A stretch of 64,000 nucleotides of DNA, taken from positions 2,914,001 through 2,978,000 of the forward strand of contig OX597834.1 in NCBI GenBank assembly GCA_951406725.2. The letters are read 5' to 3'. Source of the DNA: Octopus vulgaris. Lineage: Eukaryota. A program made the position numbers and the translations under genes. Positions 16,882 to 46,907 of this stretch are shown here, piece after piece. Positions within the stretch are counted from its first letter, which is position 1. Every line of letters starts with the position of its first letter. The notes under the pieces were generated by a model that was not told where the DNA came from, ran no database searches, and worked only from the letters and a program-made list of their open reading frames with translations.

Positions 16882-17770
16882 GCGAATTCCTGTACATGTG
16901 TCCGCATGGCTTCCCGGCACACAGGGCCAGCCTTCTGAGGTTCTCCTACACTTAAATATCACATATTTGGAATCAGGGTAACCCCGGAAGTGTTCCTGTA
17001 CTACTTTGCTCTGCTGACCTGCGGCGCAAGTTCAGATCACGCTGAAACACCTTCAGTTCTTACAATGAGCAAAATTCAAACGAACAATTTGAACAATGAA
17101 AGGAGAAATATACAGAGAAAACCAAACTGGATGTTGGCTAGAGAAATATATTCCAGGTATTTAGAAAGCGAATAGCAAGCAGGCAGAATAATTAACGTGA
17201 TTAGGAACTCCTTTAACTTTATGTTTCGCTAATAAAATATACTTTCATGTTGATTTCAAATAAAAACGGCTCCAAGTTGCAATTTTGTTATTGATCAAAT
17301 CCTTTTCTTTCGAATGAAATCCATGAAACATGAAGCGATAGACTCTTTCCTCTTACTGAATCCGTTCTTCACGAAGAAAAACAAACTCTTTTATATCATG
17401 AATCACCTTTTTTCAAACGGTTTTTGAAAGTCAAATTAGAATTAACAAACGGTAAAAAAAATTATTTTTTTTTGTTTTTCATTGAATGAACGTTTGGAAA
17501 GTTGTACCTGACGATATCAAAATAGAAAGGTGTCAAAACAAGACCGGAATTGAAGGGAAACGTTATAATGGGGGCTGGGGTGAGGTATGGAGTCATAAAC
17601 TGGAAAAGCGAAAACTTGGGACTTCCAGGTGAAAAGGGATCCAGTGAAGTGTTTGACTCGATATGATTGGGTGAAGATTTAGGACAAATCACTAAATGTC
17701 AGCGGTGGGTGGGTGTCCCGGAGAGAGACTGACTTTATTTATGCAGATAAAGAATTATTGATGTTATGTC
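16882..17770 (+). repeat. Left arm of long-range inverted repeat (near-identical core 16966-17560)
   Basis: Reverse complement of 46057-46907. About 13 mismatches in ~595 nt of core by hand alignment; flanks are much more diverged. Confidence 0.92.
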
Positions 17771-17844
17771 ACAGCTTATTTTGTACAAGCCTTGCAGTTT
17801 TAAGGCTTTCAGGAGGAATTCCTTGACTTTGTGTATACGTGAAT

Positions 17845-18792
17845 ATAGATAGATAGATAGATAGATAGATAGATAGATAGATAGATAGATAGATAGATAG
17901 ATAGATAGATAGATAGATAGATAGATAGATAGATAGATAGATAGATAGATAGACTGATGGATAGATAGATAGATAGATAGATAGATAGATAGATAGATAG
18001 ATAGATAGATAGATAGGTAGATAGATAGGTAGGTAGGTAGGTAGATAGATAGATAGATAGATAGATAGATAGATAGATAGATAGATAGATAGATAGATAG
18101 ATAGATAGATAGATAGATAGATAGATAGATAGATAGATAGTTAGATAGATAGACTGATGGATAGATAGATAGATAGATAGATAGATAGATAGATAGATAG
18201 ATAGATAGATAGATAGATAGATAGGTAGATAGATAGGTAGGTAGGTAGGTAGATAGATAGATAGATAGATAGATAGATAGATAGATAGATAGATAGATAG
18301 ATAGATAGATAGATAGATAGATAGATAGATAGATAGATAGATAGATAGATAGACTGATAGATAGATAGATAGATAGATAGATAGATAGATAGACTGATAG
18401 ATAGATAGATAGATAGATAGATAGATAGATAGATAGATAGATAGATAGATAGATAGATAGATAGATAGGTAGATAGATAGGTAGGTAGGTAGGTAGATAG
18501 ATAGATAGATAGATAGATAGATAGATAGATAGATAGATAGATAGATAGATAGATAGATAGATAGATAGATAGATAGATAGATAGATAGATAGTTAGATAG
18601 ATAGACTGATGGATAGATAGATAGATAGATAGATAGATAGATAGATAGATAGATAGATAGATAGATAGATAGATAGATAGATAGGTAGATAGATAGGTAG
18701 GTAGGTAGGTAGATAGATAGATAGATAGATAGATAGATAGATAGATAGATAGATAGATAGATAGATAGATAGATAGATAGATAGATAGATAG
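17845..18792 (+). repeat. (GATA)n microsatellite with higher-order periodicity
   Basis: ~950 bp of GATA with the same GGTA interruption cassette at about 18016, 18224, 18468 and 18684. Confidence 0.95.
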
Positions 18793-20019
18793 ACGTGTGT
18801 GTGTGCACATGAATACGTATTTTTACATGCATGGATACACACGCACACAAACACACACACACGTGTGCGTTTGCATCTATGTTTCACGTTTTAGTAGCGT
18901 TCCTGTTTATATTCCGTGTTCAAATCGCGCCAAGGTGAACTTAAACTTTCATTTTTCCGGGTTCGACCAAAAACAAGTACCAGTTATATAATGGGGTCGA
19001 ATCACGCCCTAATAATATCTTAAATAACGAAGGTTTTGATGCGAATTATATCATAACCGTTATAAATTCTGAGGTGGTGTTATCAGAAACACCAAGGGTC
19101 ATGCTCTGCATAACGTTTCGATGGACTCATGTACCTTCGATTTAATGAGCTAGTGAATTTTAACTCATTAAAACAAAAATATATTAATTAAAAATGGTGA
19201 AGAGGCTGAAGAAACGATTGACTTTATGCTCAGCAATGGTTTGCATATGTTTCCTGAATGTGTTTCGGCAGATTGAAATGAGAATATGGTAGTCGCTGTT
19301 GTGTACGTCACATGAGAGCAATTTCTCCTTTTTATGAGGACATTGTCTTCATAGCACACTTCTCCTATAAAAGGAAGAAATCGTACTGTGACGTACTCAA
19401 CGCCGACTAACATATTTGCATTAAAATCTGTTGGAATCTATTAAGAATTAACACGCAAAATCATTGTTTCGGATCTCGCTGTACGCTGTGCGAATAATGA
19501 TTTTTTTTTTATTTTTAAATCAGGTCAGGAAAGACAAGGGAGGTAACTCCTGGAATGCTAATTAATGAAAATGACATTCCTGATGATGATGATGATGATG
19601 AACGATTAACTTAATGTTACCCTAAACGCAATTCCATTCCTTGAGTTCCCTCATTAAAGCAATTTAGCATCGATTTCCTTAAGTCAGTTAAGAAATAACA
19701 AAACCACTTCTGGGGATCGAACGACGTGTCTGTCGGTTGCCAGTTATCCGCATTACCGATTGTACTACAAAAACACCTGCATTTATTTGTGGTGTCCTCC
19801 CATTGTACGGCTTCGGTTGTTAAAACAGGGCATATTCGATGCGGAATGGTGAGGCCACTGCTTCTCTCTCTCTCTTTCCCTCTCTCTCTCTCTCTCTCTC
19901 TCTCTCTCTCTCTCTCTCACTCACTCTCTCTATCTATCTATCTCTATCTCCCCCTCTCCCTCTCTCTCTCTATTCCTCGTCCTCACAGTACTGAGTGTGT
20001 TTCCACTCATATATTCACA

Positions 20020-20385
20020 TACAAACACGAAAACTGGGTCCTCCGTCGCTCTCGACGATTGAGTATTCAGTTGTTCGACCAACTGAATTAAAAAGAATAA
20101 CGTTCCTTCCTGTATCATATAGTCCCATGGGGCCAGCTTTCCCCATGTTCGCCGCATCTGGACCAGACTGGAGCAACGTGAAATGAAGTGTTTTGCTGAA
20201 GAGCACCACGCGTCGCCCGCTCCAAAAATCGAAACCACAATCTTACGGTCATATGTCCAACACTGCTAACCACTAAGCCACGTGCCACCAATAACTGAGT
20301 TGCCGCTACATGAAATTAACATGCAAGTGGCTGAATACTCCGCACACATATGTAACCTTAATGTGATTCCCTGGCAGAATTTGCC
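20020..20385 (-). mobile_element. SINE family C-related fragments
   Basis: GCAACGTGAAATGAAGTG...ATCGAAACCACAATCTTACG...AACCACTAAGCCAC. Confidence 0.72.
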
Positions 20386-20505
20386 TGACACAATGAAAGG
20401 GGGCGGCACAGTGCATGGTGAGAGGGGAGAGAGAGGGGGAAGGAATGAGGAGAGAAAAGAGAGAGAGAGGCCAGCACCAGCACTTGGTAGTCCTTTAACC
20501 TAGAG

Positions 20506-44660: not shown

Positions 44661-45069
44661 CGATCTCAATATGACCAACTTCGTCTATAGATATTTTCTT
44701 TTTTTTACGATTGTATGTATGTATACAACTAAGTATATATGAGTATACACGCATATCTTTAAATGGTGTAGAATCTGAAAAATTCTTTCTTCCCGTTCGG
44801 TGTCTTTCGGTATTTTGGCAGAGACACGTTTAATTATTCAGTCTTTGTTAATCTCTTTAAGTGGTTAATACTATGTCCAGACGTATTAAGGTGGCTCTGT
44901 GAGGCCCAGGGGTGTCTGGTTTACACACACACGCACCACATAATGATAGATAGATAGATAGATAGATAGATAGATAGATAGATAGATGATAGATTGATTG
45001 ATTGATTGATTGATTGATTGATGTATATATACATACATACACACACACACGCGCATATATATATATATA

Positions 45070-45460
45070 TATTCTTTTATTCTTTTACTTGTTTCAGTAA
45101 TTTGACTGTGACCAAGCTGGAGCACCGCCTTAAAGGGTGTTAGTCAAAGACATCGACTCCAGTACTTACTGTTTGTTAGCCTAGTACTTATTCTACCGGT
45201 CTTGTGCCGAACCGCTAAGTTACGAGGGCATAAACACACCAGCATTGGTTGTCAAGCCATGACGGAGGGATAAACACACACACAAATACATATATATATA
45301 TATATATATATATATTTACGACGGGCTTCTTCCAGTTTCCGTCTACCAAATACACTCATAAAGCCTTGGTCGGACCGAGGCTATAGTAGAAGAATCTTGC
45401 TCCAGGTGCCACGCAGTGGGACTGAACCCGGAACCATGAGGTTGGAAGATATGCTAAGTG
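45070..45460 (-). mobile_element. SINE family B, full-length
   Basis: Same architecture as 58735-59132. Confidence 0.85.
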
Positions 45461-45842
45461 ACAGAGAAACGCGCTCGCGCGCGCACACACTCTTGCGCTC
45501 GCACACATACGAGTGTGCCAGTGTGTCCATAGAAGTATTCCATCCATTTTGTAAACTATTTCAAAGAAATTTCATAAAACAGCCGGAATATAGCATAAAC
45601 CAATTATTTCCTCTTAACACATCTCTCACGAAGAATGTTATTCTTCACTATTTACCATAAAAATGAAGTCGGTTGGGCGCTTTTAAAATCACGGCGCTAT
45701 TCTACACACCAGACACAATATAAACTTTTTTTAATATGTATTTTATTCTATCCAAAAAATCGTTTTCCGGGCAGATGCCTGATCTGCCTCATCGGAAGTT
45801 TGGTGAATCTTCGATCTAAAGTATGATGGTAAAACAAAATCC

Positions 45843-46050
45843 TATGGCAGCATCGCTAGCACACCTGACAAGATGCTTAGCGGCATTTCGTCCATATTTA
45901 TGTTCTGAGTTCTAATTCTTCCTACGTCAACTTTGCATTTTATTCTTTCAGGGTCGATAAGTTAAGTACCAATTGGACACAGGGGTCGATGTAATTGACT
46001 TAGTCCTCCCGCCGAAATTGCTGGCCGCGCGCCAAAACCCCAAACCAATA
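45843..46050 (+). mobile_element. SINE family A
   Basis: TGGCAGCATCGCTAGCAC...GAGTTCTAATTC...GGGTCGATAAGTTAAGTACC. Confidence 0.8.
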
Positions 46051-46056
46051 TAAAAA

Positions 46057-46907
46057 GACATGACATAAAGAATTCTGTCTTGGCGTAGTTCAAACCCACA
46101 ACGCCTGACTTTTAGTGACATATACAGTCAAAGAATCTCCACCTATTCCTGTCGCATTATACATTTGACTGAATCTATTTTTCATTGAATCTTCAAGGTT
46201 TCGCTATTCTAATGGCCCTCAACCATTGTTTCCCTTCAATTCCGGTCTTGTTTTCAAACCTTTCTATTTTGATATCGTCATGTACAACTTTCCAAACGTT
46301 CATTCAATGAAAAACAAAAAAAAATAATTTTTTTTACCGTTTGTTAATTCTAATTTGACTTTCAAAAACCGTTTGAAAAAAGGTGATTCATGATATAAAA
46401 GAATTTTTTTTTCTTCGTGATGAATGGATTCAGTAAGAGGAAAGAGCCTATCACTTCATGTTTCATGGATTTCATTCGAAAGAAAAGGATTTGATCAATA
46501 ACAAAATTGCAACTTGGAGCCGTTTTTATTTGAAATCAACATGAAAGTATATTTTATTAGCGAAACATAAAATTAAAGGAGTTCCTAGTAACGTTAATTA
46601 TTCTGCCTGCTTGCTATTCGCTTTCTAAATACCTGGAATATATTTCTCTAGCCAACATCCAGTTTGGTTTTCTCTGTATATTTCTCCTTTCATTGTTCAA
46701 ATTCTTCGTTTGAATTTTGCTCATTGTAAGAACTGAAGGTGTTTCAGCGTGATCTGAACTTGCGCCGCAGGTCAGCAGAGCAAAGTAGTACAGGAACACT
46801 TCCGGGGTTACCCTGATTCCAAATGTGTGCCATTAAGTAAGGGAAGAACTCCTGGGGGTTGACTTTATACACAACGAGCCATGCGGATGCAAGCACAGAA
46901 ATTCGCA
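46057..46907 (-). repeat. Right arm of long-range inverted repeat (near-identical core 46228-46824)
   Basis: Reverse complement of 16882-17770. The same 61-aa ORF appears in both arms in the ORF track. Confidence 0.92.

Follow-up and report, generated by a model that had tools for sequence, protein, structure and literature searches.

The window analysed here is a stretch of 64,000 nucleotides of the Octopus vulgaris genome (assembly GCA_951406725.2, contig OX597834.1, positions 2,914,001 to 2,978,000), and positions below are those of the window. Its minus strand carries, at 29003-29675, the coding part of the first coding exon of a receptor gene, which runs from an ATG at 29675 to a splice donor after 29003. 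This exon matches Pfam ANF_receptor (E 2.2e-35); together with its homologues and tblastn, this match identifies the gene as a group I mGluR (mGluR1/5-like). In tblastn with five full-length homologues, matches in the window are confined to 29003-29675, with no further mGluR exon. Upstream of the ATG, a candidate splice acceptor (30602-30720, minus strand), with a long pyrimidine tract and an AG at 30604-30603, suggests that the ATG exon would be a second exon of 1.6 kb, preceded by a non-coding one. The exon is enclosed by a pair of inverted arms, as the original prediction had it, whereas the promoter also placed between them is only putative: the strong acceptor-like site at about 30603 suggests a non-coding exon upstream.

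The best match in a self-BLAST of the window joins 16878-17561 with 46910-46228 on the minus strand, over 685 columns. Each arm, of about 0.9 kb, comprises a homogenised core of 597 bp set between two old flanks. The left core (16965-17561, plus strand) lies in the intron that follows the first coding exon and the right core (46228-46824, minus strand) 16.6 kb upstream of the ATG, with a spacer of 28,666 bp between them, so that the inverted arms stand about 29 kb apart. On the ungapped diagonal, the left core and the reverse complement of the right one differ by 13 substitutions in 597 bp, without any indel (about 98% identity), and the core edges given in the original prediction are accurate to 1 bp. 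Identity falls to 67% in the outer flanks (left arm 16878-16964, plus; right arm 46825-46910, minus), where 54 of 81 aligned bases are equal between 16882-16964 and 46907-46825, and to 73% with several gaps in the inner ones (17562-17776, plus; 46057-46227, minus; 120 of 165 equal). The local scores of these flank homologies (44 outer, 81 inner) were not equalled in 1000 Markov shuffles each (maxima 40.5 and 40.7), and the best scores in the rest of the window are 37.8 (1102 chunks) and 39.3 (1098 chunks), respectively. The outer flank is the weaker-backed of the two, its best block being 28/34. The step itself is abrupt: the longest run with at most 13 mismatches extends over 602 columns, against a mean of 203 and a maximum of 311 in 20,000 column permutations, and is far beyond chance. 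The sharp drop from a core of about 98% to old arms, first noticed by eye, is thus borne out by formal alignment.

The left arm is followed, 3′ of its inner flank, by a GATA microsatellite starting at about 17846. On the other side, the visible homology of the right arm ends at a repeat (45856-46056, plus strand) which we take to be SINE-like and which has five more partial copies in the window (73-78%); no arm homology was detected past it.

The core does not behave as a member of a young transposon subfamily with many near-identical unlinked copies. In contigs from four public runs (X1, X4, X7 and X12) of three organisms, searched for matches of at least 80% identity, depth over the core centre (two bins, 17094-17201) is exactly that of one contig in each run (64.9, 6.72, 26.4 and 6.1), and the old-flank bins 16878-16931 and 17580-17633 are covered by at most one contig; less similar copies elsewhere in the genome lie below the reach of this search. 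By contrast, the neighbouring repeats at 16230-16715 have depths that in X1 and X7 range from thousands up to hundreds of thousands. The high-copy core, named at the outset as the case that would speak against recombination between the arms, is therefore absent from these runs, and nhmmer detected no third copy of the arm in the window. Neither arm displays a convincing terminal inverted repeat, no target-site duplication was apparent by eye and none of 12 read-through frames of the arms matched Pfam, in agreement with the initial impression that TIRs, TSD and transposase or RT motifs were lacking. Among 123 ORF pieces submitted to Pfam, chosen from 625 candidates mostly on the minus strand of 1-28.7 kb and in the arms, no arm ORF passed the cut-off. 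HMMER with one left-arm plus-strand frame (1 of 12) against 1.84 billion proteins gave no match. Two arm peptides used in word searches brought up no candidate, the ESM Atlas with one arm peptide gave no usable match, and Rfam had no match in the window. Exact look-up of six arm peptides in the public contigs recovered none of them and, left-arm peptides being absent as well, says nothing about the junctions. A metagenome scan with a 20-mer returned five loci, each alike over 20-21 bases only, as expected by chance, and a resemblance of the core start to a Helitron-like element (15805-16184) was rejected, 51 of 500 shuffles scoring equally high.

A mosaic family, in which two transposon subfamilies sharing a young internal segment would have inserted independently, could be accommodated by the repeat richness of the window, by short additional matches over parts of the arm and by inner-flank mismatches that favour one codon-like phase, like those of a decayed coding relic. 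Yet with a single contig per run over core centre and flanks alike in all four runs at 80% identity or more, no third copy in the window, no terminal repeats and no protein match for the frames and peptides searched, we consider it highly improbable.

The public contigs also carry information on the differences between the arms. These Logan contigs are non-branching paths of distinct 31-mers, as stated in the available part of their description (PMC12424806). The X1 contig over 16800-17845 differs from the left arm at six positions, all of which belong to the 13 arm-difference sites and show the right-arm letter, and at none of 449 flank bases; were allelic variation spread evenly, all six would fall inside the core with a probability of 0.035. 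X7 displays 12 differences, including five right-arm letters, and the X4 contig is a complementary mix with the right letter at 17217 and left letters at 17342-17382, all four combinations of the two arm-difference clusters being present among contigs. The presence of right-arm letters in independent data indicates that they are not sequencing errors. Although contig depth is not a copy number, the core contig stands at 1.26 times the mean of seven other listed contigs in X1 and at 1.41 in X7, where two collapsed copies predict 1.33 and up to 1.47, while X4 and X12 show no rise; depth in X1 and X7 leans towards two collapsed copies. The contigs, anchored on the left arm, may be collapsed copies or left-arm alleles.

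The X1 contig runs unbroken over both core edges, and X7 contigs over each edge, which argues against a second core with other flanks, unless graph cleaning dropped the right-arm flanks. A graph-cleaning rule may remove such flanks from contigs, but the path lengths in the window agree with it only partly, being 264 words on one side and, if the window's repeats alone are counted, 820 on the other. These unbroken contigs leave some room for an assembly or polishing artefact, in which the right core would be a second allele from the left locus that was written into an old paralogous site. Right-arm letters do sit on contigs with left-arm flanks, 2.2% is compatible with an allelic difference, and the right-arm flanks and junctions are known from this assembly alone. 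On the other hand, there is no clear route by which reads would reach a 70% paralogue when their own locus is assembled, and the raised core depth in X1 and X7, the absence of flank differences in X1 and the start of the X4 contig at 16964, one base off the core edge, are in keeping with two copies that really exist. An artefact is thus unlikely.

Purifying selection on an old core was proposed originally in the form of a constrained duplicated cis-element. To hold the core at 2.2% beside a corrected flank divergence of about 35%, it would have to lower substitution to 6% of the flank rate. In the one species pair compared (organisms A and C, 516 core bases), the C branch accumulated four substitutions and a 2-bp deletion, against 0.4-0.5 expected under such constraint (P 0.0008-0.002) and 6.3-8.0 substitutions at the flank rate (P of four or fewer: 0.10-0.24), and A-C divergence does not differ significantly between core and flank (Fisher P 0.2-0.5). 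As the core changes at near the flank rate between A and C, strong selection is rejected. The ETS-type motif CCGGAAGT at its beginning occurs once in 64 kb where base composition predicts about 0.8 (arithmetic), and the core is largely AT-rich, with A and T runs. The cis-element consequently finds no support; the first 114 bases (16965-17078, including the motif), in which neither the two arms nor the contigs of X1 and X7 show any difference, would leave room for a small constrained sub-element, but among the explanations considered here a constrained cis-element is the least probable.

Our preferred reading, to which we give a probability of roughly 0.78, is that two ancient paralogues in inverted orientation underwent ectopic gene conversion, which produced the core at about the time when these close relatives split. 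The original suggestion of conversion or recombination between old arms, as opposed to two young insertions, is supported by the identity step, by homology that continues in register on either side of the core, as in a conversion tract, and by low copy number. Neither young-family copies, in the contigs of the four runs at 80% identity or more, nor purifying selection, in the one species pair, explain the core. The arms, 29 kb from each other, could descend from an ancient inverted duplication, or both be remnants of a repeat that has since died out. When one of them suffered a break or a stalled fork, the other would have served as repair template, a repair leaving the flanks without lasting change. 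The last large homogenisation would date from about the time when organisms A, C and D separated; arm-to-arm core divergence is 2.2% and the orthologous flanks of A and C differ by 2.4-3.1%. Later short conversion patches may have been added. There is a weak lean towards the left arm as donor. That both cores are widespread in A and probably in C, and collapse in short-read graphs, has about an even chance; a smaller share of the probability goes to a right core copied recently from an allele of the left arm and absent from some individuals. Conversion starting at about 70% likeness is rare, and would need an earlier stretch of higher identity which is no longer visible. Duplication at staggered inversion breakpoints, a model that requires unrelated flanking sequence, fails, the flanks being homologous on both sides.

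The pair could also be in functional use, as an invertible segment toggling the ATG exon or as a long RNA duplex for circularisation or editing, selected for pairing. Of 11 inverted matches straddling the exon, the arms score highest by a wide margin (1027 bits, the next 172), the acceptor-like site at 30603 would turn the ATG exon into an internal one, depth hints at both cores persisting in two organisms and, from the accessible part of PMC9068888, squid editing is common in repeats and introns. However, there is no sign of a transcription start beyond 46.8 kb, and the spacer of 28.7 kb contrasts with the decay scale of about 800 bp of human Alu editing (human data; accessible part of PMC4066801). 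An inversion would sever the first coding exon from the gene and would presumably be selected against. The bracketing of the exon says little, because an interval of this size placed at random in the window covers it in about 85% of cases (arithmetic). Functional use of this kind is very unlikely. It is likewise improbable, if marginally less so, that the arms are kept alike by repeated conversion across species and used, for a duplex circularising or editing the ATG exon or for a 29-kb flip. A transcript starting beyond the right arm would then form a 600-bp duplex around this exon, with neuronal circularisation or editing, or else the flip would give this group I glutamate receptor an on/off allele or make it a somatic mosaic. 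The T>C tally (14, against 9, 11 and 12) of X4, a run tentatively taken for RNA, is no evidence on editing.

Near-identical tracts within diverged linked copies, comparable to the octopus core, are described in the available text on C. elegans for fog-2/ftr-1, where a 77%-identical tract was converted between neighbouring paralogues, for the inverted hsp16 modules and for col-12/col-13, inverted orientation occurring there too (PMC3966223). These pairs lie 0.4-2 kb apart, whereas the octopus arms are separated by 28.7 kb and are non-coding as far as tested; moreover, the octopus conversion is deduced from one assembly and collapsed contigs, unlike the C. elegans cases (PMC3966223, same portion). 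A high-identity patch in older inverted arms also characterizes human inversions of the HsInv0209 type, the accessible section giving a 782-bp region of 99.9% within 7-kb inverted duplications of 94%, a range of spacers (5-226 kb) into which the octopus one falls, and a cited mean Drosophila conversion tract of 518 bp (PMC3961182). The octopus arms differ from HsInv0209 in being of 0.9 kb with a 98% core and in that their inversion would break a gene (PMC3961182). As proposed here, conversion between inverted arms preserves likeness in Y-chromosome palindromes, but those arms, in the part of the source at hand, are very long and above 99.9% throughout, against only 0.6 kb homogenised in octopus (PMC3723533).

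Exons that form circular RNAs can be flanked by complementary sequences. Alu pairs edited by ADAR share with the octopus arms a long, near-perfect inverted match, which here flanks an ATG-bearing exon, at a distance about 36 times the human Alu decay scale in the excerpt available (PMC4066801). By the human rule that duplex partners for ADAR or back-splicing lie within a few kb, a rule that may not hold in cephalopods, the pair fails at 28,666 bp.

The locus is likely a known kind of event, a recombination footprint without sign of function so far; apart from offering a weak substrate for rare inversions, the pair most probably plays no part in the mGluR gene. Nothing related was found in the octopus genome literature on gene conversion at inverted repeats, and among the octopus mGluR papers listed no title or abstract opening refers to this locus. 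The pair would represent a clean case of ectopic conversion between low-copy non-coding arms, about 70% alike and 29 kb apart, at the permissive end for both identity and distance, and may serve to date conversion among close species. Its importance would rise greatly only with proof of an inverted allele or of an RNA product that depends on the duplex. A long high-identity stretch in inverted arms is also what a recurrently inverting repeat possesses, and a rare inversion at the arms would inactivate a group I mGluR gene. Short-read contigs do not phase across a core of 597 bp, and the four core-flank junctions exist whichever way the segment is oriented.

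The strongest self-match of the window (self-BLAST) is an inverted pair of arms of about 0.9 kb each, whose cores (16965-17561 and 46824-46228) differ along an ungapped diagonal by 13 substitutions over 597 bp, with zero indels, and are separated by a spacer of 28,666 bp. In register with the core, 54/81 positions are identical in the outer flanks and 120/165, with gaps, in the inner ones; both scores were reached by none of 1000 shuffles, nor anywhere else in the window. The identity step holds under permutation: the longest stretch with no more than 13 mismatches runs for 602 columns, a length that never exceeded 311 in 20,000 permutations. 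The near-identical core inside diverged, homologous arms described in the original prediction is thus borne out. Visible right-arm homology ends at a repeat that we take to be SINE-like (45856-46056), with no resumption beyond it. There is some clustering among the 13 arm differences: of the 12 intervals between them, 9 measure 30 bp or less (P 0.02, with P 0.11 by another statistic, the choice being post hoc). This hints weakly at later short conversion patches.

Copy number was assessed by mapping contigs from four of 24 sequencing runs (X1 and X4 from organism A, X7 from organism C, X12 from organism D) to 16230-17845 with a cut-off of 80% likeness, a limit below which less similar copies elsewhere in the genome would go unseen. 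The segment 16230-16715 is high-copy, its summed depth reaching thousands to hundreds of thousands (X1, X7). Core bins 17094-17201 received exactly one contig in all four runs, which rules out a young dispersed family, and no more than one fell in the bins of the old flanks (16878-16931, 17580-17633); some core bins displayed additional short matches at two- to eight-fold depth. A profile built from both arms found no third copy in the window. High copy number of the core, the main threat to the inference of conversion, was therefore not seen in the contigs of these four runs at 80% likeness or more, and the inference survives. Around 17681, X1 and X12 each yield an additional contig (depth 106.8 for that of X1) with a 4-base insertion, possibly from a third old arm relative elsewhere in the genome.

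The same contigs carry right-arm letters. One of 1084 bases from X1, covering 16800-17845, shows six differences from the left arm, all at the 13 arm-difference sites and all with the right-arm letter (17085, 17336, 17342, 17364, 17368 and 17382), and none across 449 flank bases. In X7, five sites carry right-arm letters; its core also has four private substitutions and a private 2-base deletion, and its outer flank shows three differences. X4 (11 differences in all, 4 itemised) reverses the X1 pattern, with the right letter at 17217 and the left ones at 17342-17382, and all four combinations of the two site clusters thus occur. One X4 contig starts at 16964, 1 base off the core edge. Since linked combinations match neither arm (right 17382 with left 17386 in X1, right 17336 with left 17342 in X4), variation between individuals is genuine.

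Two explanations fit these letters. Both cores may be present in the sampled animals and collapsed in the assembly graph, which predicts a depth of 1.33-fold in X1 and up to 1.47-fold in X7; 1.26 and 1.41 were seen, against seven other listed contigs each. This would, however, require the assembler to have discarded the short right-arm flanks. Assembly-graph cleaning may drop short side paths, and path lengths calculated from the window alone fit such a loss on one side only. Alternatively, the left locus is polymorphic for the right-arm letters, and the sampled animals lack the right core, which would have been copied recently. This agrees with the lack of raised depth in X4 and X12 and with the tool's own caution that depth from contig mapping is not copy number. 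In addition, the X1 contig passes both core edges unbroken, although Logan contigs are described as non-branching paths with distinct 31-mers (PMC12424806). Both explanations amount to gene conversion, differing just in age and spread. The right core could, with low probability, be an assembly artefact, since the contigs were mapped on the left arm.

The original prediction also proposed a constrained cis-element. Under that hypothesis, 2.2% divergence in the core beside about 35% corrected divergence in the flanks needs 6% of the flank rate. Organisms A and C differ at 11-14 of 449 single-copy flank bases (a range due to three differences not itemised), and over 516 core bases the branch private to C should carry 0.4-0.5 substitutions if constrained and 6.3-8.0 if not. 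Four were observed (P 0.0008-0.002 under constraint, 0.10-0.24 without), organism D agreeing with A at the three of these sites that it covers. The core as a unit is not under strong constraint and this part of the prediction is not supported; that of conversion or recombination between old arms is supported. The first 114 core bases, without variation in either arm, X1 or X7, could be constrained. Fisher tests detect no difference between the divergence of the two arms (13/597) and that of the flanks between A and C (P 0.43-0.84), which suggests that homogenisation dates near the split of these species.

In the likeliest course of events, one arm suffered a break or a stalled fork; the nearby inverted paralogue would have served as repair template, and repair would have overwritten about 600 bp, leaving the flanks unchanged. 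How the repair proceeded, which arm was the donor and how many events took place are matters of inference. Earlier work reports a converted 77%-identical tract between neighbouring paralogues of C. elegans (PMC3966223), a 782-bp patch of 99.9% identity within inverted duplications that are 94% alike, and a mean length of 518 bp for conversion tracts in the fly (both PMC3961182). Literature searches on octopus gene conversion, inverted repeats and mGluR found nothing on this locus. The arm pair is probably a further case of ectopic gene conversion.

As to the old arms, no terminal repeats, RNA family match or, by five routes, protein match was found in them, the HMMER part taking one of 12 frames. 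In the inner flanks (17631-17771 and 46056-46182), mismatches fall by phase as 8/4/3, 3/3/2, 3/0/0 and 7/1/4 in four blocks, pooled 21/8/9, a lean to one phase of three (P ~0.02, by hand and post hoc) that is absent in the three outer-flank blocks. A synonymous-change test on the inner blocks did not reach significance, with P 0.11 in the best of them. The arms may be a decayed coding relic.

Between the arms lies the first coding exon of a group I mGluR, its coding part at 29003-29675 (minus strand; Pfam ANF_receptor and homologues). It matches an unnamed protein at 76% and mollusc proteins named as mGluR1/5-like at ~57-67%. Five full-length homologues detected no further mGluR exon in the window, placing the left arm within a long intron, 11.4 kb downstream of the exon; the right arm precedes the ATG by 16.6 kb. 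A candidate splice acceptor, a pyrimidine tract ending in AG (30604-30603), stands ~930 bases upstream of the ATG, so transcription may start further up and long microsatellites may lie inside the 5′ UTR. In 29676-30604 (minus strand) the stretch from the TA run to the ATG lacks any AG, and a short out-of-frame upstream ATG immediately precedes the mGluR one. At 46632 (minus strand; mirror near 17157, plus strand), the core contains an ETS-type motif, an ATG and, ~90 bases further, a donor-like site; those of the right arm share the mGluR orientation, and a predicted upstream first exon there is conceivable.

Inversion between the cores is possible, the arm pair being a candidate substrate, but a flip would cut the ATG exon off from the rest of the gene; short-read contigs do not phase across the core. 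If transcribed together, the two cores could also form an RNA duplex around the exon, and they are the strongest of 11 inverted matches straddling it. Squid RNA editing targets repeats and introns (PMC9068888), whereas human Alu editing decays over ~800 bp (PMC4066801), against a spacer of 28.7 kb here. An interval of arm-pair length covers the exon in ~85% of random placements in the window, hence the bracketing carries little weight.

Other repeats occur in the window. The element at 15805-16184 (plus strand), presumably a non-autonomous Helitron-like one, begins after a TA run and closes with a GC-rich hairpin and, after it, CTAG; an exact second copy of the element's final 34 bases lies at 63310-63343 (minus strand). 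A palindromic MITE-like repeat (16564-16717, 83% self-inverted over 154 bp) is high-copy in the mapped runs. The 474-bp direct repeat at 7773-8246 and 9091-9563 (98.5%) is a recent local duplication and forms the tail end of a LINE-like element, whose zf-RVT lies at 8554-9108. Broken mariner/Tc1-type transposase pieces (HTH_48, HTH_Tnp_Tc3_2, Transposase_1) lie at 37557-37880, 49740-50120 and 60680-61432.
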